Shown piece after piece: positions 22,798 to 57,058 of a stretch of 64,000 nucleotides of DNA. Position numbers and translations under genes: made by a program. A model generated the notes under the pieces. That model was not told where the DNA came from. It saw only the letters and a list, made by a program, of their open reading frames with translations, and ran no database searches. The DNA comes from Gammaproteobacteria bacterium (GTDB lineage Bacteria; Pseudomonadota; Gammaproteobacteria; SZUA-140). The stretch lies in contig JAKISP010000001.1 of the NCBI GenBank assembly GCA_021648525.1, forward strand, positions 2,061 through 66,060, in the 5' to 3' direction. How positions within the stretch are numbered: the stretch's first letter is position 1; every line of letters starts with the position of its first letter.

Positions 22798-25700
22798 CTA
22801 GCAAACCTTTATCCTCTTTTTTCGATGCGTGATGAACAGCCCGTACAGGCTTAGCACCACTAACGACCAGAGTGGATGCAAAATCCCACCGCCGCCACCC
22901 GATGCCGCAGTGGTGCTTTCAACCGCAACCGCAACTGCACCAATCTGCGCAGGATCTTTGATTACTCGATTAGCCTGCCCATCCATATCATTCGGACCAC
23001 CGTCCTCAATCGTCAGCTGGACACAATGGTCTCCCGCCGTCAATCCTGCAGTGAATTTTGCACTAGCGGGTAATGGGCAGATACCCGGAAGACCTGGTGC
23101 CGAGGCGATACTATTATCACCATTTTGAACAAAATCAGCCCAGCCACTGACAGGATGATACTTGCGATAGAGCGCACCAATGGGAATCGCTTCCGTCTGG
23201 GGAATCACAATCTTCACAGATTGACCGGCATTGGGCAGGTCAGCAATTTCAAAATCGAAGTAACCACCTGAATTTGGCACCGTATCCGGTGTCGTCACGG
23301 TGCCCGGATTACCCTCTCCACCACCATATGCAGAAATATCACCAGAGGTCACATACGCACCATCAGCACCAGCGGCAAAGGCAACATCGCCCAGACGTAG
23401 AATGAGTCCTGGCTCAGTACGCATAATGTATGTCTCAGTTTGAGCCGAAAAGAGCTGTAATTCATTGCCCGTTAACGTCGAGGCATCCAGATAATCAGCC
23501 AGACCATCGCCATCTGAATCCGTGAACAGCTCTATGTCATCATTAACACCATCGTTATCACTATCGACCGAAGTCAGTACAGGAGCCGCTGAGACCACCT
23601 TTAACAACAGCTCGCTGCTAATCGATATATTAGGCGTACCATTATCAGTTGCCGTCAAACGCACCTTATAGAAGCCGTCAGCCAATCCAGTCGGATCAAA
23701 AATGAAGGTAGTATCATCAGCATCATCAATTTCCACTGCTCGCAGCATCGCATTGCTCGCAATCCAACTATAAGAATGGGTATCCGCCGGGTTAGGATCC
23801 GAGACAACTGCTGTCACCACCACATTACCATCGGTCACAACCACCAGTCGCCTATCCTGCGTTGACTGAACCGCCGAGAGTGCCACATCTGCCGCTTCAT
23901 TCAGCTCAGTCGTTGTCATAGTGTGAGTATCACGCAACCCTTTACGTGCATTGGTCGGATCACCCATTGTAAAGATAATTGTTTCACCAGAATCACCAGC
24001 CCCATCATCAGAAACAGCCACCGTGAGGCTGCCGTTAACACCACTGGCAATCATAATATTACCATCCACCGCATCATGATCATCTGGGTTAGTGGCCGTG
24101 CCAGTCACCGTATAAGGAATAGTCACGGGATAGCTTAATGCTGTTCCACTCAATATGACATCCACCGTAATACTGCCACCTTCACCAATCGTTTGATCAA
24201 TCATAAAGTTGACAAAAGGAGCCACTGGTGCGGTGTCGTCATCGATCAAAATGATCGTTTCACGCGATGGCCTGTCAATGATGTAACCTGTTGAGGGCAT
24301 CAGCGTGATGATAATTGTCTCATCACCTTCCGCCGTTATATCCTGTATCGGCTTAATCGCGACCGTTTGACTATTGCTACCAACAGGAATATCAACTGAA
24401 CCCGATAGCATCTCATAATCACCGCCCGGCCATGCATTACCGCTCGTTGCATAGAAAACTCGCAAACTACTCGTAGTTAAACCAATACGGGTAAAGGTCA
24501 TCAGGCCGGAGGCAGACGCCTCGTTGATAGTCGGATTGGTCGCACTCACATTCACCCGAGGGATACCGCTGTTATCGTTATCACGATTCACCAGCAAAAC
24601 ATCATCCGCATTTATCGCGTTGTAATTAGCATCACCGCTGCTCACGGCTACAGCGGTAACTATGCTGTAATCAACATCACCATCAACACTGTTTCCGTCA
24701 TCGACACCAAATACCGTTACCGTTTTCGGCCCCCAGTCAGCAGAAGTAAAGAGTAGCTGGCTGGGTGTCACCACCCCTTCGTTCACGTTGGTACTCGACA
24801 GGTTAATCGTAACGTCATCATCTGGTTCACTTGTCAGGCGCATCGAAAATGTTACGGATCCGCCCGACTCTGTTGTTACATTCGTCTGTGGCTGTGAAAC
24901 AATAATTGATGCAATGTCATTATCAGCAATCGTCAACGTCGTATCTGCTGGTAATCCAGGCGAGTATCCACTGCCGAGCAGTAACGTAACAATGATGGTC
25001 TCTGCCGCATCAAGTACAGCATCTTCTATAAAAAACACGGGAACCGTAATATAGGTAGAACCGGCAGGTATCACCACTGAGGTACCCAGCCCTGCATAAT
25101 CAACACCCGCGCTCGCCGTGCCACTCACCAGATAATCAACCGTTAGCGGATTAGTGATCTCACCAGAACGTGAGAAGTGCAGCTCTCCAGTATCACCCTC
25201 GGCTGCACTGACTGAGGTGACAGCCACTTCTACGGCAACATCATTGTCTTCGTTGATGACAGAAACATTGTCCGGATCAATACCACTATATGCAGGGTCG
25301 GTTGTCACCACCGTCGCGAGGTCAATGATATAAGGTATACTGCCATCGGAAATAATATCATTTATCCCCGTAATGGTAACCATTTGCGGTGTGCTCCAGT
25401 TATTGATATCAAAACTCAACTGTACGAGATCAACCGTACCTTCTGTGGTTGTCAGGCTGTTAACATCAATCGTTAATGTATCGCTCGGTGCTGCAAAGGG
25501 GGCATCCAGCACCACAGTAAAGGCTGCCGAACCACCCGACTCATTTGTCACGAGACCAACGGTCGGTGTCACTGTCACACCTGGAACCTGAACATTACTC
25601 ATGTAAAGGAATACGGCACCCTCATTTCCGGTAGAGGCACTGCTCTCAATATTGATGCCGGAAGCATAAACATCAGACAGGCCATCGCCATTAATATCGC

Positions 25701-28700
25701 CAACGGTACCGACCGCAGTCCCAAGATAGTCATAACTGCCCCAGACCTCTCGATCCTTATCCGAAAAGACCGGCGTAGTTTGCAGGCTGCCAAGGCCATC
25801 ATTCAGGTAGACATACACACCGCCAGCAGCAGTAAACAAGGTCCTTCCTGGCCCACCGATAATCACATCCAGCCAGCCATCTCCATTAAAGTCACCTGCC
25901 GATGAAATCGAATCAGAACCGTAATTAGCGCTGTTATAAGGGCCGATCACAGACCAGTCGCTCTCTGTGTCTGTACGCACAATCCCATCACCGTTGGCTG
26001 CGGTGACTAGCCCTCCAGAAGCACCCGCTTTAAACAGGAATACAGCGCCTTCATAACTGGTGCTCGTAGCAATACTGTATCGTCCGGCACCAATCAACAG
26101 GTCATTAAAACCATTACCATCAATATCGCCCGCATCCGCAACAGAAGAGCCTAAATAGCCTCGAAATTTATCGCTCTCGACCATCCAGTCCGCATCTGTC
26201 ATATGGGCAATTTTATCGGCATCGGCATCATTAAAACCACTTGCTGAGCCGTAGAAAAGGTAGACACGTCCTTCATCGACACTGCCGTTATCAAAAAGCT
26301 GTGCGCCCATCACCAGGTCTGGATAGGCATCACCATTGACATTTACCGAGGCCATACTGCCCGCTCCCCGACCAGGCTGAGAGAGCGATTGATCACTCTC
26401 AAACGCCCAGTCCCAGGTCGCTTCTTCTATCACATAGATGGTTTTATTGTTGTCTGGATCCAGCCACCCATCGGCCCGATAACCGACAGGCCATAGAGTT
26501 CGATCTGCACCATAAGTCGTCGTCCACTCTACCGCATAATTTTTATACAGAAACACACGTCCTTCGTTTGCGAGATCACCATCAAAATTTGATGCGGCTA
26601 TCACCAGGTCGGTATCACCATCATTATCAAAATCATCAGCAACAACTGAAGAACCAAACAGGCCATTACTATTAGTGCTGTAAAAAAATAGCGCAGCATC
26701 CGCGATTTCCGTAATTCCATCGCCATCCAGGTCTGAAAGACCAGTGGCCGAACCATAATAGATATGCACTCGACCTCGGCCGGCGTTATAACCGACTTCT
26801 CCTACCGCCATATCCTCACAGGCATCACCATTAACATCCCCCAGATTAACCACCGTATTCCCAAAATCACCACCTACCGTGTAAATCCGTTGATCGCTTT
26901 CAGCAGAGAAACCATCTCCTGTGCCGTAATAAACACTAACATCACCTCTAAAAATATAATCACCACCGACCACCATATCCTGGGTGCCATCACAATTGAC
27001 ATCTATCATCTCTACCGCTCGGCCATGCAGTCCATTTGTGACATCAGGATCAAAGGTAATAATATTACGGTTGTTATCCTGATTGGTAACAGTGACATCC
27101 GCTGGATCAACACTGCTGTAGTTACCATCACTCGTAATCAATGTGGTTTGAATGGTGTAATCCTGATTACCATCCGTTGATTTATCATCCAGCCCGGTTA
27201 CCGTCACTGTGGTGCCACCTGCCGAAGGCGCAACATTCGCAGGGAATGTAATTGAGGCGGGAAATACCTTGCCCTCACCAGGATCACTACTGGAGAGATT
27301 GATCACTACATCCGCCGTTGGTTTTGCGCCAAGCTTGATAGTGAACGTGGCGACCCCACCACTTTCAGTGGTGGTCAAACCAGTGGTCGGCGAGACCGTA
27401 ATCGTATAACTTTCATTATCGATATTGGTCATTGCAATATCAGCAGGATCAATGCCGTTATAATCACTATCGTTTGAGACAAAGGCACTACTAATAATGT
27501 TATATGGCACATCGCCATCAACATCAAAATCATTCCTGCCCACAATAGTAACCGATGCACCGGTGTTCCAGTCAGCAGGCTGAATAGTAAAAGTAGTTGG
27601 GCCAAACAGATTACCCGACACAAAGCCTTCACTAAAATCATCTGTCTCCAGCGTAAAGGTCACGGTCGCTGTTGGCATGCTGGTGAGCCGCACAGAAAGC
27701 GGGATAAAACCACCACTTTCATTAGTATCATAACCAAAGAGTGCTACTGTGGTCATACCTGCAACTTCGTTGTCAGTATTGGTCAATGAGACATCGGTAG
27801 GATCATGAGCCGCATAAAGTGAATCAGCACTTGCCGTCACGGTGATATCAATACTGTAAGCGGTCGCCGTGTCGATAATTACATCATCAACCCCGGTCAC
27901 CACCAGTGCTTGCGGCGTTGCCCAGTCAAGCGGCGTAAAAACAAGAGAAGGGATATCGATGATACCTTCCGTGGTATCCGTTGAAACTAGCCCAATAGTG
28001 ACATCAGCGGTCGGTTCAGAATCAAGGCGTACTGTAAAACTGAGGGTGCCTAAAAGCTCTGTTGTACTGACACTATTATTGGGAGTGACGGTCACCCCCG
28101 TCGTATCGTCATCGAGATTAGCCATCGCAATCGATGGGGACAATTTGTCATCGTAATTGCTGTCGCTGCTAATAGCAGCGGCTACTAATATTTGATAGAC
28201 AATATCACCATCATCAACATCATCATTCACACCTGTAATCGTCACTGTTTGTGTGACATTCCAGTTGCCCGTGGTAAACAGAAGCCCTGGAGAGGACAAC
28301 ACACCCTCAGTGAGATCGGTGCTCTGTAGCAGGATGGTGACATTGCTGGCTGGTGCATTGCCTAACACGACATCGAAGGTCGCGGTACCGCCAGCCTCAC
28401 TTGTCGAACTACTCACTGTCGTGACATTCACCACACCGCTTCCTGCAACATTGACGACATTATAGGTCACTGCCACGGTGGCGATGACAGGTGTCGTTTC
28501 CAGGTTCGATACTAGTATGACTTTATACTGCACCCATTGATCGGCAACGGCATCTCTCAGCGCTGGCGGCATGCTTGTGCAACTAATTGCGCCTATACCA
28601 CTACAGCCTCCACTGTGAGTATCTGTCGAGTTCCAGAAGGTTGTCGATGAACCGTCTGGCCCCATCCAGCCTGACCATGCCCCGGGGACACCACCGCTAT

Positions 28701-31635
28701 CTACCGCGGTTTGAATCTGTACCTGAACATCGGTACCCGCCACAGGCAGTGTTTCATTCCAGGACAGAGCACCCAGCAGATTGGTACTATCGATTGTATT
28801 GTAGGGTGAAGAGGTCAACTGCGCCGAATCGACGTAGGTCGTGTAATTAAAGGTAATGTCATTCAAACCAGGTGTTGCATTGACATCTGTCGAAGTCATG
28901 CGAATACGATACTGAGCGTAACGATATGTTGAAAGCAGAGAAATATCACCCGTGTTTAATATGTCCGTCTGCCATGCCGTCCAGGAGCCATCCACCGTCA
29001 GCGCATCACCCGCGCGCACATCAACGGCAAGTGACGTACCGACCGGCAAGTCAGTCGTATAGTTAAGCGTTGAAAAACCAAGGTGCTGACCAAAATCGAT
29101 CACTGAAGATAAATATTCACCCGAAGTAGCATAGGGGCCAAGGTTGAATATCTCCAACCCCCGCGAACCAAGCGTCGCATAGAGCAGGTTTTTATTGGGC
29201 AACGTGCGCAGGATATTATAAGTTGTCCCGGGCTGACTCAACAATAGTTCTGGCGAAGTCGGATTGCTGATATCGAGGACCCTGGCCTGATTGCCACTTG
29301 CTGTATACAGCAGATCACCATTAACCGTAATAGGTGCATAAGAACTCGCTACCAACGAAGAAACAGTGAGCAAGATGGGCGTAGTCGGATCGCTCACATC
29401 ATAAATGTGCAATCCCCCTAGTGTATTCATATAGGCAATATCACCCTTCGCAACGACGAATCCAGGTATCCCGTCAGGGCTGAGAGTATTCACTAACTGA
29501 GGGTCTGTGGGATCTGAAACATCAAAGATCAACATACCATTCGCAGCAGTATTATCGGAAAGATAAACATACCCTTTTATGTAAGAGACATAGAAGGCAG
29601 TTCCAGGGGTATCGTAACTGCCAACCAAAACGGGCGCGGCAGGGTTAGAGACATCAATAATTTCAAGTCCGCCACTCGCAAGAGCACCGAGATAAGCATA
29701 ATTCCCCACCTTCACCACCGAAATAGTCCAGCCTGGTGTTGTCACACCACCCACCGTCACTGGCGAGGTGGGGTTGGTAATATCCACAATACTCAAGCCG
29801 TTCACGGAGGCAACGTAGGCATAGTTACCATCGATATCGACATCGTAAATACGTGAGTTGTTATGAGCGGTGCTCGCGACTAAAAGTGGAGCAGAAGGGT
29901 CTGAAACATCAATAACCCTGAACCGGGAATTAGCATTTCCTGAATCATCCGCGTTATAAAGATACCCATCACGATAAAAAGGCTTTCCGTTCAACCCGTA
30001 AAACACATCATATCGTCCCAGTGAAACTGGAGAAAGCGCAAAACTTAAGCCAATGGAAGCATCTGTGCCATCACCATCAATCTTAATGTTAGTGCCACCC
30101 GCATACTTCAAGTAGCCAATCATCGCATCAAGAAATCCTGGTGTAACAGTGCTATCGGTCGTTGCCAAAGTGATGACATACTGGAAATAACGGCGGTCAC
30201 CCAGGATTGAAACATCAGCGCCACTCGCTACCGATGAGATCGTTATCCAACTGCCATCAAAAATCGGCGTATCACCGGCTCTGACATCGACTGTTATGGC
30301 AGTTCCAGCGGGTGTCGTGTCAACAGTATACTGGAAGGTATTAAAACCATAATGCACCCCTGTATCCATCACCGAGGACTCATACGTCCCCGATGATGGA
30401 TACGTAACCCCACTGCCCAGACTCAGATGGCTAGTACCACTGCTTTGTCCGCCAAGCAGGTCCAGAATCCCATCACTATTGACATCACCCAGTGAAAAGA
30501 CACCTAGAAAACCGACATCGACACCCCCTTCCCATGAAGTATCACGCGCACCCCAGTCAGGTGCGCTCGCGGTACCAATATTGGGATACGCCCAAAAGGT
30601 TCCTGTATTCGTCCCAACAATCAAATCATCTAGACCATCGCCATTCAAATCACCCAGCGCCGGCGCTGAAAAAGAACCAACATCATCCCCGGTCTCCCAT
30701 GTAACCGGCGCACTGGTCGACCAGTCAGGGGACGTAGCACTGCTATTCACAAACGCAAAAATGAAGCCATTCCCAACCCCCGTCACCAGATCAAGGTCAC
30801 CATCATTATCAAGATCTGCTAGTGCGGGCGCTGCAACCGTGTTATTCCCATAATTAATCATGTTCGGGCCATTGAACGCGCTGTTATATTGCCATGCTGG
30901 CGACGATACGGTTCCTATATTTTCAAACCCCATATGTCGCCCATCGTTCACACCCACCAGTAGATCATAATCACCATCGCCATCAAGATCACCCGCCTCA
31001 GGCCGAACATACCCACCAGGAATCGCTGCATAATAGAGGCGCCAGCTTGTTTGAAGCGTCCAGACAGGCGATACCGCCGTGCCTGTGTTTCGATAAGCAT
31101 TAATATAATCATTGCTATATTCGCCGACCATTAAATCCAGCAAACCATCGCCATCCAGATCCACCAACGTGGGCGCAGTATTGGAACCAAGATCGGTGTG
31201 AACATTAAACTGAAGAGCATTCCACGTGGGCGTGGTTCGGGCAAGTGGCGCAATGATAACTCTACCACCCGCTATTTGAGCATCAGCCATATTAGCACCG
31301 GCCATCGAAAAATCAGCCCCCGATGAATGAGACTGAGATTTATCTGCATTTAGTGAAAAATCGCTGTCAGTAGTATGGGTCAGTGAGCGGCTTTCAGTTC
31401 CGAGCTGCAGGTCTGCGCCCGCGTTAACCACTGCCAGCGAGGTATCCTTGTTCGAATAAGTTGTCCAGCTATTTTGATTCCCCGGGTGGATAGCGTTAGT
31501 CGCTGTCGCACCGCCACCCCATGCCCCTTGATTAAAGGTACCGGATGTCGCCGCTGAGACTAAAGGGGGAACAGATAACAACAGGAGTGCAATCGTGACA
31601 ACAACCCTAAGACGAGTTTGGGCGAGGTGCGACAT
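22798..31635 (-). CDS. giant secreted adhesin-like surface protein (~2,945 aa): FG-GAP beta-propellers, LVIVD repeats, tandem Calx-beta-like domains, TSP3-like Ca-binding repeats, GlyGly-CTERM sorting signal
   Basis: A signal peptide (MSHLAQTRLRVVVTIALLLLSVPPLVSAAT) starts from the internal Met at 31635. There are at least two sets of FG-GAP repeats (DLDGDGLLDLMVGE, DLDGDGDYDLLVG, DLNGDGLDDLIVG... and GDVNGDACEDMAVGE, DFDNDGDTDLVIAAS, DIDGNGFNDLLIGA, DFNGDGWLDVIIGG, DINGDGLSDVYASG). LVIVD-type repeats are present (SIVDITNPTSPV, LEIIDVSNPAAP, MLIFDVSDPTDP). At least 10 tandem Calx-beta/cadherin-like modules of about 100 aa have the form ...TFDVVLGNAPASNVTILLQSTD...VTITGVNDD.... D-rich DxDxDG repeats are present (DSDNDGVNDDIELFTDSDGDGLADYLD). 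The C-terminus SGGGGGILHPLWSLVVLSLYGLFITHRKKRIKVC has the GlyGly-CTERM architecture: Gly run, TM helix, basic tail. Confidence 0.9.
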   Translation of the reverse strand: MSHLAQTRLRVVVTIALLLLSVPPLVSAATSGTFNQGAWGGGATATNAIHPGNQNSWTTYSNKDTSLAVVNAGADLQLGTESRSLTHTTDSDFSLNADKSQSHSSGADFSMAGANMADAQIAGGRVIIAPLARTTPTWNALQFNVHTDLGSNTAPTLVDLDGDGLLDLMVGEYSNDYINAYRNTGTAVSPVWTLQTSWRLYYAAIPGGYVRPEAGDLDGDGDYDLLVGVNDGRHMGFENIGTVSSPAWQYNSAFNGPNMINYGNNTVAAPALADLDNDGDLDLVTGVGNGFIFAFVNSSATSPDWSTSAPVTWETGDDVGSFSAPALGDLNGDGLDDLIVGTNTGTFWAYPNIGTASAPDWGARDTSWEGGVDVGFLGVFSLGDVNSDGILDLLGGQSSGTSHLSLGSGVTYPSSGTYESSVMDTGVHYGFNTFQYTVDTTPAGTAITVDVRAGDTPIFDGSWITISSVASGADVSILGDRRYFQYVITLATTDSTVTPGFLDAMIGYLKYAGGTNIKIDGDGTDASIGLSFALSPVSLGRYDVFYGLNGKPFYRDGYLYNADDSGNANSRFRVIDVSDPSAPLLVASTAHNNSRIYDVDIDGNYAYVASVNGLSIVDITNPTSPVTVGGVTTPGWTISVVKVGNYAYLGALASGGLEIIDVSNPAAPVLVGSYDTPGTAFYVSYIKGYVYLSDNTAANGMLIFDVSDPTDPQLVNTLSPDGIPGFVVAKGDIAYMNTLGGLHIYDVSDPTTPILLTVSSLVASSYAPITVNGDLLYTASGNQARVLDISNPTSPELLLSQPGTTYNILRTLPNKNLLYATLGSRGLEIFNLGPYATSGEYLSSVIDFGQHLGFSTLNYTTDLPVGTSLAVDVRAGDALTVDGSWTAWQTDILNTGDISLLSTYRYAQYRIRMTSTDVNATPGLNDITFNYTTYVDSAQLTSSPYNTIDSTNLLGALSWNETLPVAGTDVQVQIQTAVDSGGVPGAWSGWMGPDGSSTTFWNSTDTHSGGCSGIGAISCTSMPPALRDAVADQWVQYKVILVSNLETTPVIATVAVTYNVVNVAGSGVVNVTTVSSSTSEAGGTATFDVVLGNAPASNVTILLQSTDLTEGVLSSPGLLFTTGNWNVTQTVTITGVNDDVDDGDIVYQILVAAAISSDSNYDDKLSPSIAMANLDDDTTGVTVTPNNSVSTTELLGTLSFTVRLDSEPTADVTIGLVSTDTTEGIIDIPSLVFTPLDWATPQALVVTGVDDVIIDTATAYSIDITVTASADSLYAAHDPTDVSLTNTDNEVAGMTTVALFGYDTNESGGFIPLSVRLTSMPTATVTFTLETDDFSEGFVSGNLFGPTTFTIQPADWNTGASVTIVGRNDFDVDGDVPYNIISSAFVSNDSDYNGIDPADIAMTNIDNESYTITVSPTTGLTTTESGGVATFTIKLGAKPTADVVINLSSSDPGEGKVFPASITFPANVAPSAGGTTVTVTGLDDKSTDGNQDYTIQTTLITSDGNYSSVDPADVTVTNQDNNRNIITFDPDVTNGLHGRAVEMIDVNCDGTQDMVVGGDYIFRGDVSVYYGTGDGFSAESDQRIYTVGGDFGNTVVNLGDVNGDACEDMAVGEVGYNAGRGRVHIYYGSATGLSDLDGDGITEIADAALFFYSTNSNGLFGSSVVADDFDNDGDTDLVIAASNFDGDLANEGRVFLYKNYAVEWTTTYGADRTLWPVGYRADGWLDPDNNKTIYVIEEATWDWAFESDQSLSQPGRGAGSMASVNVNGDAYPDLVMGAQLFDNGSVDEGRVYLFYGSASGFNDADADKIAHMTDADWMVESDKFRGYLGSSVADAGDIDGNGFNDLLIGAGRYSIATSTSYEGAVFLFKAGASGGLVTAANGDGIVRTDTESDWSVIGPYNSANYGSDSISSAGDFNGDGWLDVIIGGPGRTLFTAAGGVYVYLNDGLGSLQTTPVFSDKDREVWGSYDYLGTAVGTVGDINGDGLSDVYASGINIESSASTGNEGAVFLYMSNVQVPGVTVTPTVGLVTNESGGSAAFTVVLDAPFAAPSDTLTIDVNSLTTTEGTVDLVQLSFDINNWSTPQMVTITGINDIISDGSIPYIIDLATVVTTDPAYSGIDPDNVSVINEDNDVAVEVAVTSVSAAEGDTGELHFSRSGEITNPLTVDYLVSGTASAGVDYAGLGTSVVIPAGSTYITVPVFFIEDAVLDAAETIIVTLLLGSGYSPGLPADTTLTIADNDIASIIVSQPQTNVTTESGGSVTFSMRLTSEPDDDVTINLSSTNVNEGVVTPSQLLFTSADWGPKTVTVFGVDDGNSVDGDVDYSIVTAVAVSSGDANYNAINADDVLLVNRDNDNSGIPRVNVSATNPTINEASASGLMTFTRIGLTTSSLRVFYATSGNAWPGGDYEMLSGSVDIPVGSNSQTVAIKPIQDITAEGDETIIITLMPSTGYIIDRPSRETIILIDDDTAPVAPFVNFMIDQTIGEGGSITVDVILSGTALSYPVTIPYTVTGTATNPDDHDAVDGNIMIASGVNGSLTVAVSDDGAGDSGETIIFTMGDPTNARKGLRDTHTMTTTELNEAADVALSAVQSTQDRRLVVVTDGNVVVTAVVSDPNPADTHSYSWIASNAMLRAVEIDDADDTTFIFDPTGLADGFYKVRLTATDNGTPNISISSELLLKVVSAAPVLTSVDSDNDGVNDDIELFTDSDGDGLADYLDASTLTGNELQLFSAQTETYIMRTEPGLILRLGDVAFAAGADGAYVTSGDISAYGGGEGNPGTVTTPDTVPNSGGYFDFEIADLPNAGQSVKIVIPQTEAIPIGALYRKYHPVSGWADFVQNGDNSIASAPGLPGICPLPASAKFTAGLTAGDHCVQLTIEDGGPNDMDGQANRVIKDPAQIGAVAVAVESTTAASGGGGGILHPLWSLVVLSLYGLFITHRKKRIKVC

Positions 31636-32222
31636 CAAATAACATACATCATTATAGCCAGCTCTGACTTGATACATCGACCGCCTACCCCTTTTCAAAA
31701 TATCGAATGAAGTTTCTATCTACCATTCCAGGCACTCTATCGTGCTTTTTTCTAGCCATCCATATAACAACAGAAGGCGATATGGCATGAAGACCCATTA
31801 AAATATATCCATATATTTTGATTTTCTGCTCAGATTTTTGTGCGTAGCAAAACCTGAGCTTTAGCGCTATTACCCATGGTTATCGGCCAATCAAAACTAC
31901 TTTGCAAGCATTATCCTACGCTAGAAGCTCAATAATAGCCGCGCCAGGCCTTAAACCTCCTTCTAAAATCAACATTTAACCAATGAATACAATCAGGTAA
32001 CAATATTCCGCATCCTAAAAGCAAAAAAGTAGGTAAAACGGCTAAAAATCACCAATTGTGATAAAGCATACCGGTTGAAAAGGGGAATATTCTACATTGT
32101 GAACCGCAAGGTTAATCATGAGCCTTCGCCAAAAGACTTTTCTGAAATATTAAGGTCAGAATAATACATAAAAAATGTAAAATTATTATAAATCAAAGCA
32201 TTGTATTGTATTGTATTTCAAA

Positions 32223-32483: not shown

Positions 32484-33299
32484 ATGCAACCGATTTTGAG
32501 CATTATCTTTAAGAAGAACAGCATCTCGACTTTTTGCCTTGTCTGTAGCATCTCTGCTCATGCTGAAAACACATTTGTTCTAGATTTCATGCCTGACGAT
32601 GGCGGCACAATGGGTTCATCCGCTAGCACCCCCTGGCTAATGCGCGGAAGCCTTCAGCTTCCAGAAATTGTGGTCGATCCAGACACTGGATTAGATTATT
32701 TCCATATCATTATGGGGGATCCTGACAGCGGTTTTATGCAAGATGTCTATATTGAACGCGGCTTCAGCTCTTTCCAGGGCGGGCCCGGTTCAGCAGTAGG
32801 CGGAGGTGGCAATGGTGGCAACAACATCACACCGCTCAATGCAAACTCAGGCACAGGCGAAGCAAATCCTCGTAAGGTCCTAGTCAGACAGGTTGTTTCT
32901 GATGGTGAAATATACATGGATTTTACCAAAGACAAGTTAGATCGAAAACCCAAAATCACACAGATGCTAACACTGCCTGACATGAGTTCTATTTTTCAGA
33001 TAGACATGAGTAACAGCACCTACGGTGACGACCTCACCCCTGGCGTGGTCTTTTACACCCTGCAGCTAGCAGACGACTATCAAGATCAGGCTGACTTTAA
33101 CTTCGCAACCGACATTCAGAAATCCATAATCGATGGTGGGCGCTACACATACACCAACGGCTCTGGGCCCGGCGGCTCGGCAGGCACCTATAACTACGAC
33201 CAGGGCAACTTTGATATTGATGCCGTTTCATGGGAAGTTTACTTTGACCACAGCATCGAAAACCCGTGGTCAAATCCCGCCAACAAACCACAGCCATAG
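32484..33299 (+). CDS. secreted hypothetical protein with Gly/Asn-rich segment
   Basis: A signal peptide (MQPILSIIFKKNSISTFCLVCSISAHA) starts from the internal Met at 32484. It has a GGGGNGGNN low-complexity stretch. I recognised no family. Confidence 0.55.
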   Translation: MQPILSIIFKKNSISTFCLVCSISAHAENTFVLDFMPDDGGTMGSSASTPWLMRGSLQLPEIVVDPDTGLDYFHIIMGDPDSGFMQDVYIERGFSSFQGGPGSAVGGGGNGGNNITPLNANSGTGEANPRKVLVRQVVSDGEIYMDFTKDKLDRKPKITQMLTLPDMSSIFQIDMSNSTYGDDLTPGVVFYTLQLADDYQDQADFNFATDIQKSIIDGGRYTYTNGSGPGGSAGTYNYDQGNFDIDAVSWEVYFDHSIENPWSNPANKPQP

Positions 33300-42958: not shown

Positions 42959-44140
42959 ATGAAAAAGAGCAGCAATAAATTACACGGTAACTGGAATTAC
43001 CCCACCACCCTGTGGTTCGGCGCTGAGCGTATCACAGAGCTTGCCACCGCCTGCAAAACACTCAACATGCGCCACCCATTACTCGTCACTGACCCCGGCC
43101 TCAGTCGGCTGCCAATGGTGAGTGAGGCGCTCTCCTATAACAAAGCACAGGGCATTCCCACCGGGCTATTCAGTGATATTAAGCCCAATCCAAACGGCTT
43201 AAATATCGAGAATGGCATTAAGTATTACCGTCAAAATAAACATGACGGTGTCATCGCTTTTGGCGGCGGCAGTGCACTTGATGCAGGCAAGGCGATTGCG
43301 CTAATGAGTGGGCAGACACAGCCACTGTGGGCATTCGAAGATACCGGTGATAACTGGCAGCGTGTCGACAGTAACGGAATTGCCCCCATCATTGCAGTGC
43401 CCACCACCTCCGGCACAGGCTCAGAGGTAGGCCGAGCATCACTTATTGTCGATGAAGAAAAACATTGTAAAAAAATCATTTTTCATCCCAGAATGCTACC
43501 CAGCATTGTTATTGCCGACCCACAACTCACTACCGGACTACCCGCCAATATCACCGCCGCAACCGGCATGGATGCGCTTTCCCACAACCTTGAGGCATAC
43601 TGCGCCCCAGCCTACCACCCGATGGCAGATGGCATCGCACTGGAAGGAATGCGCCTGATCAAAGAGTGGCTCATCATTGCCTGCGAAGAGCCACAAAACA
43701 TTGAAGCGCGTAGCCAGATGATGATCGCATCCACCATGGGGGCAACCGCTTTTCAGAAAGGACTCGGTGCAATGCACGCCCTCGCCCACCCAATCGGGGC
43801 AATTTATGATGCACATCACGGCCTGCTCAATGCCATCCTGATGCCCTATGTCTTACTCAGGAACCGCCCTGCAATTGACACTCGCATGCGACACCTGGCA
43901 CGTTATCTCGAACTCGATGGTAACGACTTTGACGCGGTATTCGACTACATCATCACCTTACGCGCTCACATCGGTATTCCTGATGATTTGCGCAGCATTG
44001 GCATCGACGAGCACCGTATTGATGAGATCGCCACCCTGGCACTGCAGGACCCCTCCGCTGCTGGTAATCCTGTTCCACTGACTCAGGCGCAATATTCAAC
44101 ACTACTCAGCGACGCGATCAACGGCAACTTAAAGAATTAA
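42959..44140 (+). CDS. iron-containing (group III) alcohol dehydrogenase
   Basis: Fe-ADH motifs are present: GGGSALDAGKAIA, and His ligands in MHALAHPIGAIYDAHHG. Confidence 0.9.
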   Translation: MKKSSNKLHGNWNYPTTLWFGAERITELATACKTLNMRHPLLVTDPGLSRLPMVSEALSYNKAQGIPTGLFSDIKPNPNGLNIENGIKYYRQNKHDGVIAFGGGSALDAGKAIALMSGQTQPLWAFEDTGDNWQRVDSNGIAPIIAVPTTSGTGSEVGRASLIVDEEKHCKKIIFHPRMLPSIVIADPQLTTGLPANITAATGMDALSHNLEAYCAPAYHPMADGIALEGMRLIKEWLIIACEEPQNIEARSQMMIASTMGATAFQKGLGAMHALAHPIGAIYDAHHGLLNAILMPYVLLRNRPAIDTRMRHLARYLELDGNDFDAVFDYIITLRAHIGIPDDLRSIGIDEHRIDEIATLALQDPSAAGNPVPLTQAQYSTLLSDAINGNLKN

Positions 44141-44304
44141 GAAACCGCTGAATAAAGCCTGCTTTTCAGCATAAAACAAGGGTAATAGCGTTAAAAGAGC
44201 ACGCGCCATTACCTGCTGGTCGAATCTAAAGTGACTGCGTTATAGTTTTAAGAAAAATTGCCGATCAATTCTATAGTCCATTCTATTTCTTAACACCTGA
44301 TAAC

Positions 44305-45210
44305 ATGCTGAAGATATTAAAATTTTTTTCCAAAAAGAGAGCAACAACCAGCCAATCAGCAAGCGTGCGCGTGGTACTGGACAGTGCCCGACTATGCCAA
44401 CTGCTGCCCTATTTTCCCATCGGAGCTAATCTCAGGTATTTTCCAGAATACAGGCAAGAAATAACTCTGGACTCCATCATTATTGCCTACTTAATAAATG
44501 ATGAGGTTATTTACTCAAACAATGATCTCTCCACTACAGATGATAACCATCATTTGATATTGAATGGCGCTATGGTTGATGAAATCAACAACTTTGCTTT
44601 TCTCATTCCTGCCGTCAGCCGCAACGAAACTGAGCTGGACTACGAACAAAAAGAAATACTGGAACAGAGCGGTGGCCTGGCAAAAGGCAATAGCATAACC
44701 TTAATCGGACAGCAAACCGACGGCAAGATCCCATTCATTGACACGCTGGTAACAAAACATACGCGCTTCAAAGAAGGGCATTTCAACAACACTCAAGTGG
44801 TTGCGCTCAATGTCGATCCAACGCTATTAGAACTGAAGGACCAACGAAGTCAAACAAGGTTAGCCGCAAAAATCCCTGCTCTGATACAGACAAAGCTCTA
44901 TAACGAGAAACATCAATGCACCCTTATCGATTTCTCAGAACACACGGTCAAAATCTGCTGTGATGATAATGAAATAATTTCGATAAGCTGCACGAAAGGT
45001 GAAATAATCACCCTCACATTCAACCTTCCCTCCAGTACCACACCTAAAGTCATGAAAGGCAGAGTACTTAAAATTGATGGCCCAGCACTGATTGCCGAAC
45101 TTGAAGAAATACTGGTTGACCAACGATTCAAGAAGCTCACCACCCTCGATATTTTAGAGATTAAAACCAAATTACTTCAGCAACCACTAACATCAACTAA
45201 CACGACATAA
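44305..45210 (+). CDS. hypothetical protein, possible degenerate PilZ-like C-terminal domain
   Basis: This is the first gene of the AT-rich island. RSQTR (RxxxR) is followed about 25 aa later by DFSEHT, resembling the PilZ RxxxR...DxSxxG pattern but lacking the Gly. Confidence 0.45.
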   Translation: MLKILKFFSKKRATTSQSASVRVVLDSARLCQLLPYFPIGANLRYFPEYRQEITLDSIIIAYLINDEVIYSNNDLSTTDDNHHLILNGAMVDEINNFAFLIPAVSRNETELDYEQKEILEQSGGLAKGNSITLIGQQTDGKIPFIDTLVTKHTRFKEGHFNNTQVVALNVDPTLLELKDQRSQTRLAAKIPALIQTKLYNEKHQCTLIDFSEHTVKICCDDNEIISISCTKGEIITLTFNLPSSTTPKVMKGRVLKIDGPALIAELEEILVDQRFKKLTTLDILEIKTKLLQQPLTSTNTT

Positions 45211-45275
45211 ACAACTCATTTAGCCCCGTAAATGCCATCACAACGAGTGATCACACGCGCATCAAAGTCGCCTGT

Positions 45276-45824
45276 TTATCTACCAATAAAATTGCACTGC
45301 TCATCATCGGTTAAGGTGACATTGCTCTGCTCCAGTTTCAATAAGCGTTTTTTTGTTGTCAACCCGCCAGCATAACCAACCAATCGCCCGTCACTTCCAA
45401 TTATGCGATGGCAAGGTATAATTAATCCGATAGAATTTGCACCATTAGCAGCAGCTACTGCTCGAACAGACTTCTGATTATTGATGTTTTTTGCCAATTG
45501 CAGATAGGTTGATGTAACGCCATAAGGAACTTTCATCAATGCGCACCAGACTTTTTTCTGGAAATCAGTTCCTACTGTTAAAAGTGGAATATCAAATTTT
45601 TGTCTATCACCACTAAGATACTCGCCGAGTTGATTCCTTGTTTTTTCCAACACCTCATGATCCTGCTCAACATACTCGGCATTCAGTCCTTTTTTTATCC
45701 TGTTATCTACGGTTATTCTCATTCTTCTATGTTTAAAATCAAGAAGACACAATTGATGCTGAAATGAACCCAGTATCATTTCACCAACCCTGGATTTGTA
45801 ATGTTGTATGTTAATTTGATTCAT
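45276..45824 (-). CDS. ogt: methylated-DNA--protein-cysteine methyltransferase (Ogt/MGMT)
   Basis: The active site is IPCHRIIGSDG and the DNA-binding helix is TYLQLAKNINNQKSVRAVAAANGANSIGLIIPCHR. I chose Met 45824 because its ATG overlaps the upstream gene's TGA (ATGA). Confidence 0.8.
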   Translation of the reverse strand: MNQINIQHYKSRVGEMILGSFQHQLCLLDFKHRRMRITVDNRIKKGLNAEYVEQDHEVLEKTRNQLGEYLSGDRQKFDIPLLTVGTDFQKKVWCALMKVPYGVTSTYLQLAKNINNQKSVRAVAAANGANSIGLIIPCHRIIGSDGRLVGYAGGLTTKKRLLKLEQSNVTLTDDEQCNFIGR

Positions 45825-46600
45825 CTTTCTGTGAATAGACAGCAAAATGATTGCGTGTCTTTAATCTCCGTCAAAATGGCTTTTAGGTTATCATTCGTTT
45901 TGCTGTATACAAATGGCCCCATGCTTATTCTCTTTACCCCAATTCGCTCAAGAATCGAAAAATCTGGCAAATTGGACACTGCCATGACATTCACCGGCAG
46001 AGACACGCTATCGACAAGACACTTGATTTCATTTTCATCTGAAATACAAGGGATGAATATTCCATCGGCTCCCGCTTCTTCGTAAAGCTTTGCTCGTGAC
46101 ATTGACTGGTTTAAAGCATTATCAAGGCCGATGACATAAGGATCCGTTCGAATATTTAAAAAAATATTTATATTTTTTTCGAGAAAATATTGTTTTATCG
46201 ATTTAATTGTTTCAACGAAAATTGTTGAATCGACCAGATTTCTATTACCATCTTCGACGATAGAATCTTCTAGATTAACACCAACCACACCCAACTGACT
46301 TAACAGGACAATATTCTCTATTATTTTGCTATTTTTCCTGCTGTATCCTGCTTCAATATCAACTGTTAGTGGGATAGTGATTTTCGATACAATAGATTGA
46401 ACGACAGAATAAAGTTCATCAAAAGATATCTGTTCACCATCTTCATACCCTAGTGAACTAGCAATTGCAGCACTTGAGGTACCCAATGCTTTAAAGCCCA
46501 TTTTTTCAAACATTAACGCACTTTGTACATCCCACACGTTACCAATCAATAATGACTGTTTTTTCTGGTGTGATAAATTAAACGCCTGGAAGTGACTCAT
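45821..46600 (-). CDS. isocitrate lyase/PEP mutase superfamily enzyme (not bona fide PEP mutase)
   Basis: It has the ICL/PEPM TIM-barrel pattern (LLIGNVWDVQSALMFEKMGFKALGTSSAAIA...VDIEAGY...GVNLEDS...GADGIFIPC). It lacks the EDKxxxxxNS motif of true PEP phosphomutases. Confidence 0.75.
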   Translation of the reverse strand: MSHFQAFNLSHQKKQSLLIGNVWDVQSALMFEKMGFKALGTSSAAIASSLGYEDGEQISFDELYSVVQSIVSKITIPLTVDIEAGYSRKNSKIIENIVLLSQLGVVGVNLEDSIVEDGNRNLVDSTIFVETIKSIKQYFLEKNINIFLNIRTDPYVIGLDNALNQSMSRAKLYEEAGADGIFIPCISDENEIKCLVDSVSLPVNVMAVSNLPDFSILERIGVKRISMGPFVYSKTNDNLKAILTEIKDTQSFCCLFTER

Positions 46601-46705
46601 TATTAATCTCCTTTACTATTGTGAAAGGAGATTATAAATAATTCACTAACGCTATTCATTCACTTAGATTCATTTTTTAATTTTCTCAATGTTTGCGGTG
46701 CTACC

Positions 46706-47218
46706 TCAGGGCGTGTTGTTATGCGCATTTTCACTTCTGGCCCACGAACTGATAATTTCACTGGTTAATTGAAACTTACCGAAATCATATTGAAAAAGCG
46801 CCTCCCTTGAAACAACCTTTATCTCAGCTATTTCTGTACTGAGAGATAACGCCCCTTTAGCCTCAAGATGATAGGCAATTATAAGCTGATTGTTTTTCGG
46901 GAATTTAAAATGACCAATAAATTTGAGCGACATACAGGCATAACCAAGCTCTTCCTTTAATTCTCTTGAAATTGACTCTTCTGGCGTTTCATTTTTTTCC
47001 ATAAAGCCCGTTATGACAGAAAACACCTCTTTCGGCCATTCTGAGTTTCTCGCTAGCACATAATTATTACCCAACTGGACTAGACCAGCCACTACCGGAA
47101 CTGGATTGTTCCAATTGACGAAATCACACCCGTCAGATACACACACATTTTTATAGGCACCATCTATTTCTTGTTTTATAAGTTGACTAGCGCAGTTCGG
47201 GCAAAATTTCATGGCCAA
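46706..47218 (-). CDS. NUDIX hydrolase with N-terminal zinc ribbon
   Basis: The zinc ribbon is CPNCASQ...CVSDGC. The Nudix box is ESISRELKEELGY. Its start is 1 nt from the upstream tautomerase-like stop. Confidence 0.8.
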   Translation of the reverse strand: MAMKFCPNCASQLIKQEIDGAYKNVCVSDGCDFVNWNNPVPVVAGLVQLGNNYVLARNSEWPKEVFSVITGFMEKNETPEESISRELKEELGYACMSLKFIGHFKFPKNNQLIIAYHLEAKGALSLSTEIAEIKVVSREALFQYDFGKFQLTSEIISSWARSENAHNNTP

Positions 47219-47219
47219 A

Positions 47220-47603
47220 TTACACGTTTAATTTGTAGTTCAATTTGGCTTCATCCCCAGTAATACCCCTGAACCCCCAACAGTGTGCAGGCTGTTCTTT
47301 GATTGTTATTTCAACATCGACTGGCGATATACCTATTTCACTCTCAACCCTCTGGAATATCTCTTTAATCAATGCCTTCTGAGTTTCATGCTCCCGACCG
47401 GTCATCATGTTTATTTCAATCACGGTATATGCATCGCTACGCCCACCAGGGTAGTAGAAATCTTCCTTGTCCAGAGGAATAAATCGATGAGCCCTTTTAT
47501 CTTCTGGCATTCCGAGAACAGACTGCATACAACCATGTATCACATCTGATAGCTTAGCTTTAACCGGATTCAATCTTTCTTTAATGCCATATACTACGAT
47601 CAT
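47220..47603 (-). CDS. tautomerase-superfamily-like small protein (tentative)
   Basis: It is 127 aa. The C-terminal half has a beta-alpha-beta tautomerase-like pattern (VIEINMMTGREHETQKALIKEIFQRVESEIGISPVDVEITIKEQPAHCWGFRG), but there is no Pro1. Confidence 0.4.
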   Translation of the reverse strand: MIVVYGIKERLNPVKAKLSDVIHGCMQSVLGMPEDKRAHRFIPLDKEDFYYPGGRSDAYTVIEINMMTGREHETQKALIKEIFQRVESEIGISPVDVEITIKEQPAHCWGFRGITGDEAKLNYKLNV

Positions 47604-47777
47604 AACTATTCCTTAAACGCATATCGCCAGCATCACCAGCGGCAAAAAGTAGAGCGGTGAGGAACGAGGAGGTTCCCTACGTAAAATGTGCCAACAAGGA
47701 CTTAGTTGTTATGCTTGAATAAGTAATCATACTTGCAGTTTGCATACGTGTCTGGCACCAGGTATCAACAATGAAAA

Positions 47778-48461: not shown

Positions 48462-48466
48462 CGTGT

Positions 48467-49096: not shown

Positions 49097-49586
49097 AAAT
49101 ACCCCCTCTAAAAAAATTATCATGTGTATATTAACTGATCTTAACTTCTAAGGACACCATGGATGTGACTGTAAGTTTGTAGATGATTGGTGGGGACGCA
49201 CGGTGCTCTGTACTATGCCTTTGCTCCTGGTCATCCTGGCCGACTCATTACCCAGGGGCGCACCGTGGAAAACAATTCACATCCTAATAAACCTTGCTGA
49301 TCACATACCAACAATACCTGTTCGAAAACAGATTTGATATCCTCTAGCTTACTGCTAATGAATTGGAGTACGCAAAAAGAATGACTTTTAATATCCTAAG
49401 GTCATAAGCAGGACGACCATTAAAATCGTTTTTATAACGTGGATAAAAAACACTCAGATCAAGGTTATTTTCACATGAATATCAAAATAAGAATATTTAA
49501 CGTGCCTGAGCGTAATTGATCTTCCAGGCTCAAGGCCAACAATAGGTCTTGACAGTAGTTCGTGCGCATTTATTGCTTTTGTCAGG

Positions 49587-57053: not shown

Positions 57054-57058
57054 CCGGC

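Follow-up and report, generated by a model that had tools for sequence, protein, structure and literature searches.

A giant, probably calcium-binding adhesin-like protein with a sorting-type tail and its small secreted neighbour in an uncultured gammaproteobacterium

Introduction

Large adhesins such as LapA, SiiE and MpIBP are composed of arrays of Ig-like modules with acidic Ca-binding junctions, have ligand-binding domains at the tip of the stalk or distributed over its length and are extremely acidic; they have no Sec signal and terminate in C-terminal RTX repeats and a T1SS signal. Integrin-type seven-bladed FG-GAP beta-propeller proteins of bacteria were reportedly described by Chouhan et al. 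in 2011.

The substrates of the GlyGly-CTERM system contain a Sec signal at one end and, at the other, a flexible linker followed by a Gly-rich motif without Cys, a hydrophobic helix and a basic cluster. The mechanism is known from VesB of V. cholerae, in which an unstructured linker lies ahead of the motif (PMC6219818, PMC13393428). Table S1 of Haft & Varghese 2011 includes among the GlyGly-CTERM proteins of Shewanella denitrificans those named 'Integrins alpha chain' and 'Na-Ca exchanger/integrin-beta4' (PMC3237569). It was pointed out in the same work that short sorting-signal HMMs regularly overlook true members, and Haft's curation accepts sub-threshold tails if the homology spans a trusted instance (PMC3237569). 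The MYXO-CTERM signal of the myxosortase system (TIGR03901) has the same tripartite architecture, its signature motif having an invariant Cys (PMC3237569).

The gene described here is located in a window of 64 kb, which is the whole stretch of DNA that was analysed, and its host, an uncultured marine relative of sulfur bacteria, belongs to the Thiotrichaceae/Chromatiales group of the Gammaproteobacteria. The giant protein encoded by it shares with the GlyGly-CTERM substrates the Sec signal, the flexible linker, the Gly-rich motif lacking Cys, the hydrophobic helix and the basic cluster, and FG-GAP and Calx-beta cargo such as it carries has already been catalogued with a signal of this kind. 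It differs from them in a tail that scores below TIGR03501 and in a helix opening with the clade-specific L-H-P-L-W; it is about ten times the size of VesB, and neither the partner gene nor the fusions behind the tail that are reported below have been described for that system. The tripartite architecture is also common to the MYXO-CTERM signal, whose invariant Cys is absent from the motif of the giant. In contrast to LapA, SiiE and MpIBP, the giant combines a Sec signal with a membrane-anchor-type tail and lacks RTX repeats. Its central domain resembles the bacterial FG-GAP propellers in having seven repeats with DxDxDGxxD loops and aligns to the Ca blades of integrin alpha; this copy, however, is one part of a chain of about 2,950 aa that also contains an LVIVD propeller and a second FG-GAP/VCBS region with five repeats, and the giant has no beta-subunit-like partner.

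The Gene and the N-Terminus

The list of open reading frames and the translation showed a minus-strand frame unbroken across 22798..31698, the longest version of which begins at a TTG at 31698. The earlier note had placed the start at the ATG at 31635, giving 2,945 aa. The intact frame that it reported is real; the likelier start is the ATG at 31677 (22798..31677, minus strand; 2,959 aa, MYQV...), because the MYxI/V beginning is kept in the orthologs, a purine-rich stretch precedes this codon and NCBI called the same start. The NCBI entry MCF6322724.1, deposited as "FG-GAP-like repeat-containing protein", is identical and has 2,959 aa.

A Sec-type signal peptide (31552..31677, minus strand), composed of a basic n-region, the hydrophobic segment VVVTIALLLLSVPPLV and the residues VSAA, was read from the translation, and cleavage would fall between VSA and the following A; an equivalent N-terminus is retained in the orthologs. 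The next domain (aa 28-150; 31186..31554, minus strand) has no Pfam match, and its conservation among the orthologs was recognised with our own HMM. The protein is extremely acidic, with 359 Asp+Glu residues against 98 Lys+Arg. Rfam and tRNA scans of the 64-kb window gave nothing, and a scan of the window for promoters and terminators returned no more than expected by chance.

Propellers and Unassigned Modules

The conserved N-terminal domain is followed by an FG-GAP/VCBS region, a module S1, an LVIVD propeller, the modules S2 and s3, four modules of the Calx-beta fold and a propeller of seven repeats; a further five modules of the Calx-beta fold come behind this propeller, and the chain then passes through a PKD-like module and a pair of TSP3-like loops to the choice-of-anchor U domain, the linker and the tail. 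Pfam was run on the whole protein and then on segments, the repeat counts being taken from the segment scores. The whole protein scored 151 bits for FG-GAP, 115 bits for LVIVD, 90 bits for FG-GAP_3 and 61 bits for Calx-beta.

The FG-GAP/VCBS region (aa 150-445; 30301..31188, minus strand) consists of five repeats and gave 80 bits for FG-GAP and 72 bits for FG-GAP_3, with five stretches per model and DxDxDGxxD loops at aa 159, 216, 274, 329 and 384. The central propeller of integrin type (aa 1523-2020; 25582..27069, minus strand) reached 122 bits for FG-GAP, PF01839 exceeding its gathering cutoff with seven repeats; six Ca-loop motifs were found in it by motif scan, and a phmmer comparison with PDB returned the propellers of integrin alpha-4, alpha-IIb and alpha-5, down to E 4e-08. 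Two integrin-like FG-GAP propellers had been proposed previously; the central one stands, whereas the N-terminal region shows five repeats only. The LVIVD-repeat propeller that had been claimed as well (aa 545-880; 28996..30003, minus strand) is borne out by the scores of PF08309, 137 bits over six repeats in the segment, both this value and that of the whole protein exceeding the gathering cutoff of 20.2 bits.

Three modules in this half of the chain are without a Pfam family. S1, of about 110 aa (aa 436-545; 30001..30330, minus strand), has no Pfam match above noise and is conserved; its type was seen again, with our own HMMs, after the LVIVD propeller and in the orthologs. S2 and the shorter third module s3 (aa 859-1066; 28438..29061, minus strand) were delimited with our own HMMs as well, are conserved in all orthologs and have no Pfam match.

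Calx-Beta-Fold Arrays and Calcium Loops

The nine modules of the Calx-beta fold are arranged 4+5 around the central propeller, three of them being canonical and six divergent (type A). The first array (27070..28437, minus strand) consists of four tandem type-A modules of about 112 aa, each scoring 80-151 bits with our own HMM. The second (23881..25581, minus strand), delimited with Pfam and the same type of HMM, has the order A - Calx-beta - A - Calx-beta - Calx-beta and is followed by a PKD-like Ig module (23566..23880, minus strand), which is conserved in the orthologs and obtained 21 bits with the Pfam K319L-like_PKD model, under its cutoff of 27. Taken with this module, the arrays separated by the central propeller number four and six. 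The earlier note had claimed at least ten tandem Calx-beta/cadherin-like modules; the nine Calx-beta-fold modules and the PKD-like module form two arrays and not a single tandem run.

The canonical modules, scored alone against Calx-beta (PF03160; gathering cutoff 27), gave 35, 26 and 21 bits and matched the CBDs of Na/Ca exchangers in PDB at about E 1e-06 (phmmer). The six type-A modules had 18 bits at most, or no score, with the same Pfam model, and their profile found nothing significant among PDB sequences. The AF2 model of a type-A module (pLDDT 93) was aligned by Foldseek to CALX/NCX1 CBD1 with a TM of 0.72 in both directions, and hhalign gave a weak profile similarity between type-A and canonical modules (P=0.0016). 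The type-A module is thus predicted to be a divergent Calx-beta-like sandwich missed by Pfam. A protein of Thermoleophilia has 25 type-A copies and is wholly unannotated in Pfam, and many giant proteins would be better annotated with a new model for this module.

Thirteen loops of the DxDxDGxxD type were counted in the giant by motif scan. Two of them, DSDNDGVND and DSDGDGLAD (aa 2691-2714; 23476..23565, minus strand), form a TSP3-like pair, thrombospondin-type-3-like DxDxDG sites having been mentioned in the earlier note; TSP3_bac and TSP_3 (PF02412 / PF18884) gave 14.3 and 15.4 bits against a cutoff of 25, and the resemblance is in motif only.

Orthologs and Stability of the Locus

About 20 orthologs, of 2,887-2,965 aa and down to 37% identity, have the same module order and number. 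The near-identical internal DNA repeats reported in the earlier note were not recovered: the repeats returned by a repeat search and TRF span no more than 71 nt and share only 60-83% identity, the DNA of the modules is at most 56% identical in pairwise comparison, and exact direct repeats reach 16 nt at most. Since near-identical repeats are absent, the assembly collapse and recombinational length variation that had been deduced from them do not apply, and the module count is constant across the orthologs.

The closest relative shows a clean deletion of the giant gene, 8,370 bp long. The junction has a microhomology of about 3 nt and the remnant contains a frameshift, which points to gene decay in the relative and not to assembly collapse. 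The giant gene is dispensable, because the closest relative has lost it.

The C-Terminal Tail

The choice-of-anchor U domain (aa 2789-2899; 22921..23331, minus strand) was recognised by NCBIfam NF041766 with 40.3 bits (cutoff 32) and is followed by the linker and the tail alone (22801..22920, minus strand). The linker is short and Ser/Thr-rich; the tripartite tail consists of a GGGGG run, a hydrophobic helix of 19 residues starting with ILHPLW, and HRKKRIKVC, the C-terminus reading SGGGGG-ILHPLWSLVVLSLYGLFIT-HRKKRIKVC in the translation. Cys is absent in and beside the Gly run. The Gly-run/TM/basic-tail architecture noted earlier is thus confirmed, and the pattern GGG / helix / basic is kept in 31/31 aligned homolog tails, in which the remaining sequence is free to vary; the nearest clade has a tail motif of its own, GGGGG-x-[LI]-H-P-[LV]-W. 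We take the choice-of-anchor U family to be defined through its association with sorting signals. Because this domain lies directly upstream and the pattern recurs in every aligned tail, the tail is probably a genuine sorting signal rather than a hydrophobic end that arose by chance.

The earlier note had set a score against GlyGly-CTERM models as a test of its proposal. TIGR03501, with a trusted cutoff of 15.5 bits, gave no match to the giant even at E<=10, whether the whole protein, the 50-aa tail or the 42-aa tail was searched. Eight of the 39 tails of the family matched this model, one of them above the cutoff, and the same number matched the MYXO-CTERM model weakly. The tail above the cutoff belongs to the ortholog P0026 (43% identity, 99% coverage), which reached 17.6 bits, and the alignment of the giant with P0026 extends through the tail. 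This score, together with Haft's homology rule, leaves room for GlyGly-CTERM membership of the giant's tail.

Within the 64-kb window one tail of this type was found, and neither rhombosortase nor T2SS genes (including gsp/eps) were detected there with Pfam/NCBIfam in a scan that covered the ORFs from 150 aa upwards and, in addition, one membrane ORF of 131 aa. The few membrane ORFs of the window encode a cytochrome b561, a BPSS1780-family protein, a SirB2-like protein and a VanZ-like protein. A crude and weak motif scan (at least four hydrophobic segments, HxxxN and then GxSG) of 790 kb of related loci, a small part of those genomes, gave no rhombosortase candidate. In Haft's census, 25 of 108 genomes with rhombosortase had one such tail only, several being common elsewhere (PMC3237569). 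A search with the U domain and tail returned mainly contig-end fragments from the giant's own family. To our knowledge, the T2SS cargo studied so far falls far short of the roughly 300 kDa and the three propellers of this folded protein. The assignment of the giant as a substrate of rhombosortase and T2SS specifically is a tentative one, which from the sequence we would place slightly short of an even chance.

The Small Secreted Partner

Divergently from the giant gene, on the plus strand (32484..33299), a secreted protein of 271 aa is encoded. Its family, with 378 representative clusters, is undescribed, no relatives having been found in NCBIfam, Pfam or PDB. AF2 yielded only a poor model (pLDDT 61) and Foldseek found nothing in PDB (best E 0.27, TM 0.29 at most); the protein is soluble-looking, apparently all-beta and not a membrane protease.

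The partner adjoins the giant gene in 7/7 loci retrieved through the giant. Five giant proteins (P0028, P0033, P0197, P0290 and P0302) from two families unrelated to each other carry it as an in-frame fusion after the GGG-TM-basic tail. In these proteins the tail is succeeded by another helix resembling a signal peptide, behind which lies the small domain that is normally secreted; the tails inside these fusions are also under the TIGR03501 cutoff. The arrangement is workable only if the basic cluster lies inside, which therefore places this cluster in the cytoplasm, and the fusion, in which the partner's signal peptide is kept, fixes a 1:1 ratio with both parts extracytoplasmic.

The idea that the partner always stands beside a giant had to be rejected: neither a giant nor a GGG-tail gene lies within 10 kb of 18 of the 34 partner loci from species-representative genomes, and the housekeeping neighbours of these loci include MetH, Lhr helicase, aconitase and a histidine kinase. 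The adjacency to every giant retrieved and the fusions behind the tail in two unrelated families would tie the partner to the tail. The partner may work jointly with the giant, most likely as a surface partner or anchor present in stoichiometric amount, or as an export helper. That the proteins of about 250 aa to which it belongs would represent a new accessory family, functionally tied to the GGG-helix-basic tail and not to a particular cargo, is a more speculative proposal, which we regard as possible but doubtful.

Proposed Mechanism and Alternative Explanations

Judging from the Sec signal, the domain content, the thirteen loops and the U domain, the giant is very probably an extracytoplasmic, calcium-binding, adhesin-like protein, and the calcium-binding adhesin-like protein with a sorting-type tail that had been proposed earlier looks right. 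Ca bound at the thirteen DxDxDGxxD loops and between modules, at the acidic junctions with their conserved ...N-x-D-N-D ends, would stiffen the chain into a long stalk displaying the propellers as binding heads. The tail would first stop transfer and anchor the protein in the membrane, the basic end remaining in the cytoplasm, and would then be treated as a GlyGly-CTERM-type signal, an intramembrane protease, in the known system rhombosortase, cutting at the Gly run. The new C-terminus would be joined to lipid and the giant transferred to the cell surface, where it may act together with the small secreted partner encoded divergently upstream. Taken as a whole, the model of a calcium-stiffened surface adhesin with GlyGly-CTERM-type processing and partner cooperation is the one towards which we lean, with moderate confidence.

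The tail might instead be part of a distinct C-terminal sorting route, so far undescribed, that only resembles GlyGly-CTERM and employs a different protease or anchoring step and a dedicated partner acting as surface receptor, anchor or export chaperone. The failure against TIGR03501, the equal rarity with which the family tails match the GlyGly-CTERM and MYXO-CTERM models, the private motif of the closest clade and the use of other sorting signals by relatives (a PEP-CTERM protein occurs in locus L016) are all in agreement with such a route, as are a partner without known family beside the giant in all loci retrieved through it and its direct fusion after the tail of two unrelated cargo families. 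Yet the tail of P0026 exceeds the GlyGly-CTERM cutoff, the architecture is exactly that of GlyGly-CTERM, for which short-signal models are known to miss true members (PMC3237569), more than half of the partner loci lack a giant or GGG-tail gene nearby, and the partner, soluble-looking and all-beta, does not resemble a membrane protease. We consider a separate route unlikely.

A simpler possibility is that the tail is a plain stop-transfer anchor which is never processed, so that the giant would remain tethered to the inner membrane and act in the periplasm or in an enlarged envelope space. A hydrophobic helix with a basic end is the classic N-out/C-in anchor, the fusions show that the tail is able to span the membrane, and no processing enzyme was found by the window scans or by the motif scan of 790 kb. 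The GGG run and the flexible linker would, however, be needless for anchoring and are nevertheless kept in every aligned homolog, the choice-of-anchor U domain presumably goes with sorting signals, and there would be little point in confining integrin-like heads on a stalk of some 2,900 aa to the periplasm; this explanation appears quite improbable to us. Size, acidity and repeated Ig-like modules recall LapA, SiiE and MpIBP, and the 8.4-kb deletion at the giant locus of the closest relative could evoke a repeat-collapse artefact or a pseudogene. Against a type I-secreted RTX/LapA-like adhesin stand the N-terminal signal peptide and the lack of any PF00353 match; against an artefact, the frame is intact through 8.9 kb, length and module count are equal in independent assemblies (NCBI, ENA, JGI, Logan), no DNA repeat exceeds 16 nt and the deletion in the relative, with its microhomology and frameshift, points to gene decay. 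Both are effectively refuted and very remote. Export by T1SS, T5SS or T9SS was rejected in the same way, since Pfam and NCBIfam revealed no RTX, autotransporter or T9SS domains in the giant, which disfavours these routes.

Significance

The giant taken alone is a mostly ordinary uncharacterised adhesin-like protein, deposited already under a generic name. What is new here is its link, by neighbourhood and by fusion, to an undescribed small secreted protein. The tails of this family keep the GlyGly-CTERM architecture but mostly evade the curated model, and model-based censuses would therefore undercount the system in uncultured lineages related to sulfur oxidisers. The link to the partner offers a testable lead on the handling or surface retention of very large tail-anchored proteins. 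If the tie between partner and tail is true, the giant and its partner would constitute a two-component surface-display module in which the partner serves cargo with such tails as a receptor or an anchor or by helping its export; no module of this kind has been described for GlyGly-CTERM or for other C-terminal sorting systems.

Gene and domain structure of the giant protein

The minus strand of the window carries at 22798-31698 a single open reading frame whose translation has no internal stop. The frame of 2,945 aa proposed earlier (22798-31635) is real, but 31635 is only its third possible start, and the Met at that position is absent from the closest orthologs. The ATG at 31677 (MYQVRAG...) is the likelier start: the closest orthologs share a MYxI/V beginning, a purine-rich AGGGG/AGGCGG stretch precedes it, and NCBI calls the same start in MCF6322724.1, an identical protein of 2,959 aa on a contig of 132,940 bp, named "FG-GAP-like repeat-containing protein". 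The N-terminus, read by eye, runs from a basic stretch through a hydrophobic core to VSA/A, as is typical of a Sec signal. Intergenic regions of 543 and 806 bp, the latter counted to the ATG at 32484 of a small secreted protein (the partner), isolate the gene, which has the genes of ZapE, FumA and a LysR/CbbR-like regulator to one side and those of RhlE and an ABC-F protein to the other.

Farther along, at about 44000-50500, the GC content falls from about 0.48 to 0.39-0.41; among the ORFs there are those of a NUDIX and a phage-lysozyme-like protein and several without family match, an MGMT-domain gene flanks them, and the segment may be a horizontally acquired island. The products of a cluster at 54720-59904 (+) form an unusual redox set: two flavoproteins (FAD_binding_2) of fumarate-reductase/aspartate-oxidase type, a NuoF-like FMN/4Fe-4S protein and, encoded separately upstream, a 2Fe-2S/4Fe-4S protein.

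The description of the giant at domain level is solid. In Pfam the whole protein matched FG-GAP (151 bits), LVIVD (115), FG-GAP_3 (90) and Calx-beta (61), and a map in the 2,945-aa numbering was obtained by scanning it segment by segment and with our own HMMs, the names type-A, S1, S2 and s3 being ours. An unknown N domain (aa 28-150, no Pfam match) is followed by five FG-GAP/VCBS repeats found in the segment scan (aa 150-445), the conserved module S1 of ~110 aa (aa 436-545, no family match), six LVIVD repeats (aa 545-880, 137 bits) and, by our own HMMs, a second S1-like module, S2, with a shorter third, s3 (aa 859-1066). Four type-A modules of 112 aa each (aa 1067-1522, own HMM) lead to a central propeller of seven FG-GAP repeats (aa 1523-2018, 122 bits), to which the calcium-binding blades of integrin alpha-4, alpha-IIb and alpha-5 align (PDB; E down to 4e-08). 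The order A-Calx-A-Calx-Calx (aa 2019-2585, own HMM and Pfam) comes next, its canonical Calx modules aligning to the Na/Ca-exchanger CBDs of the PDB (E about 1e-06), and then a PKD-like module (aa 2586-2690; 21 bits, under cutoff), two TSP3-like loops (aa 2691-2714), the choice-of-anchor U domain (aa 2789-2899; NF041766, 40.3 bits vs 32) and, in the last 42 residues of the translation (2904-2945), the linker end and tail. Among the propellers claimed in the earlier note, the central FG-GAP propeller and the LVIVD propeller stand, while the first FG-GAP region has five repeats.

The type-A modules reached 18 bits at most on Pfam Calx-beta, and a PDB sequence search with the module gave no match. 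An AlphaFold model built from 33 copies was confident (pLDDT 93, pTM 0.83); CBD1 of CALX/NCX1 matched it with TM 0.72 in both directions, PapD/MSP-type Ig folds matched it also, and the profile-profile comparison with the canonical modules was weak but collinear (P=0.0016). Since the model superposes on CBD1 and the profiles are collinear, the giant is predicted to hold nine Calx-beta-fold modules and one PKD-like module in two arrays. The "at least ten tandem Calx-beta/cadherin-like modules" expected beforehand are thus about right in number, but "tandem" and "cadherin-like" hold only with reservations, as does Calx-beta as a Pfam assignment. The type-A module of 112 aa, with the motif T-x-E-x-G-G ... 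E-G ... G-x-x-D-x-x-x-D-G-D ... N-x-D-N-D, is Calx-beta-like in fold and escapes Pfam. It lies at 24574-25581 and 27070-28437 of the window and in the proteins P0040 and P0043-P0045; Bacteroidota gliding-motility-associated-like proteins have 14-16 copies, and a Thermoleophilia protein without any Pfam annotation has 25.

The giant contains 359 Asp+Glu vs 98 Lys+Arg, and 13 DxDxDGxxD-type loops, of which five are in the first FG-GAP region, six in the central propeller and two in the TSP3-like stretch; the thrombospondin-type-3-like sites of the earlier note are these last two, which score 14-15 bits in Pfam, below cutoff. Together with the invariant acidic residues common to the type-A modules, including the terminal N-x-D-N-D, these features fit calcium binding at the loops and module junctions.

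Conservation and loss

Near-identical internal DNA repeats had been said to make the locus prone to collapse, which is wrong: the modules are 47-56% identical pairwise at the DNA level and the longest exact direct repeat is 16 nt. A repeat search gave only short families of at most 71 nt, with 60-83% identity, and TRF only trivial micro-repeats. About 20 full-length orthologs of 2,887-2,965 aa, from independent NCBI, ENA, JGI and Logan assemblies, have the identical module string N S S s A A A A A C A C C P U (C, Calx-beta; P, PKD-like; U, choice-of-anchor U) down to 37% identity, and this conservation across assemblies excludes an assembly artefact.

A class of homologs of 4,300-4,550 aa (P0011, P0013-P0019, P0023-P0025, P0029, P0030) has the entire N-terminal supermodule of about 1,480 aa duplicated, that is, the N domain, propeller, S, propeller, S, s and four A modules; no LVIVD match is present in its precomputed Pfam lists. 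The close accession numbers of P0017 and P0033 (MFC1747444.1 and MFC1748885.1) suggest that a single MAG has both this long form and a form fused to the partner.

Among species-representative genomes the closest is that of Thiotrichaceae bacterium NORP103 (NVTY02000010.1, locus L010). It aligns collinearly with the window, with a nucleotide identity of about 83%, and shows a clean deletion of 8,370 bp, exactly 2,790 codons, corresponding to window 23274-31643 (junction at L010 9275-9277). The U domain and tail remain, frameshifted and without signal peptide, beside an intact partner gene. With a junction microhomology of only about 3 nt, this signal-less remnant, and the same peptide in the independent ENA record P0173, the deletion looks like gene loss and not assembly collapse.

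The C-terminal tail

The last 42 residues, AVESTTAAS-GGGGG-ILHPLWSLVVLSLYGLFIT-HRKKRIKVC, bear out the predicted architecture of a Gly run, a hydrophobic helix and a basic tail. In 31 aligned homolog tails the conserved U-domain end gives way to a variable linker of Ser, Thr and Pro, and everything varies freely except the GGG run, a small residue followed by the hydrophobic stretch, and the Arg/Lys cluster. Such a pattern, with a choice-of-anchor domain ahead of it, points to a probable sorting signal. The tail had been expected to score on the GlyGly-CTERM model, but TIGR03501 gave no match at E<=10 in three formats. Among 39 family tails TIGR03501 matched eight, with P0026 at 17.6, P0012 at 14.9 and P0015 at 13.0 bits (cutoff 15.5), and MYXO-CTERM likewise matched 8/39. 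Haft and Varghese describe exactly this situation, accepting tails below threshold when homology runs through a trusted instance, and report that a motif Cys never occurs in GlyGly-CTERM and always in MYXO-CTERM (PMC3237569). By their curation standard the tail would qualify; by the HMM, which the earlier note had named as a test that could refute the claim, it fails.

Three U-domain fragments (P0176, P0183, P0189) have a different, MYXO-CTERM-like tail, in which Cys comes after a long stretch of Gly (GGGGGGGCVA...), so that the U domain is found ahead of anchor signals of more than one kind. A 524-aa ORF 9 kb from the giant ortholog P0012 (L016 18682-20256 (-), contig CAMTYI010000121.1) ends in ...VPEPETYAMLLTGLGLVGFVARRRQR, by eye a PEP-CTERM signal, from which relatives appear to use exosortase-type sorting as well.

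The secreted partner

The partner gene (window 32484..33299, +) encodes 271 aa with a signal peptide ending AHA/E. Every locus retrieved through the giant has it: a gene of about 270-310 aa without Pfam match adjoins the 5' end of the giant gene in the window, L001 (6574-9484), L003 (7547-9536), L006 (8921-9736), L008 (9032-9964) and L009 (8687-9622), and L007 has a fusion in place of the separate gene. It is usually divergent, in one to three tandem copies, and persists at loci whose neighbours are otherwise all different; in an NCBI MAG the adjacency is confirmed by locus tags GXP14_17445 and GXP14_17450. The family has no relatives in NCBIfam, Pfam or PDB and comprises 378 representative clusters among 1.84 billion; its AlphaFold model is all-beta and poor (pLDDT 61), and no fold match to it was found. 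Retrieval through the partner gave 34 loci in species-representative genomes, all from uncultured Thiotrichaceae, Chromatiales/Chromatiaceae, Ca. Tenderia and other gammaproteobacterial MAGs: ten have an adjacent giant or remnant, six are too short to tell, and 18 have housekeeping neighbours, the partner gene there standing alone or, often, forming tandem arrays. The link is one-directional.

In P0028, P0033 and P0197, of the giant's own family, the partner is fused in frame at the C-terminus, and it is fused also in P0290 and P0302, giants of quite different make-up (Gly-rich beta-helix-like regions by eye, an S-type module, Calx-beta). All five fusions read cargo, GGG, helix, basic cluster, second hydrophobic stretch, small domain, and the second stretch aligns to the partner's own signal peptide, AxA site included. 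For both fused parts to lie outside the cytoplasm, the basic cluster would have to be on the cytoplasmic side, which lends independent support to the assumed tail topology. Fusions in two unrelated cargo families suggest that the partner may be tied to tail-bearing cargo as such.

Processing and export

In the known system rhombosortase cleaves VesB at its Gly-Gly motif, and the protein then receives a group containing glycerophosphoethanolamine and reaches the surface through the T2SS (PMC6219818); the motif alone leads to membrane association, and crossing the outer membrane requires a second signal (PMC13393428). We infer by analogy that this mechanism may carry over to the 300-kDa giant, for which surface display by rhombosortase and T2SS is plausible. 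The 64-kb window contains no rhomboid or T2SS gene by Pfam/NCBIfam among ORFs >=150 aa and one 131-aa membrane ORF, only housekeeping genes being found. Type I, type V and type IX secretion are excluded, as a signal peptide is present and RTX, autotransporter and T9SS domains are missing. In the best-supported reading the giant would be a Sec-exported envelope protein, calcium-stiffened, multi-headed and adhesin-like, with a GlyGly-CTERM-type sorting tail and a small secreted partner that would work with it.

The giant is a variant of a known sort of protein, already deposited under a generic name. Its combination of integrin/Calx-beta cargo with GlyGly-CTERM is not new, since the GlyGly-CTERM proteins of Shewanella denitrificans in Table S1 of Haft and Varghese (PMC3237569) include some with the annotations "Integrins alpha chain" and "Na-Ca exchanger/integrin-beta4". 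What is worth following is the link revealed by the partner fusions and the Calx-fold module invisible to Pfam, and nothing else.
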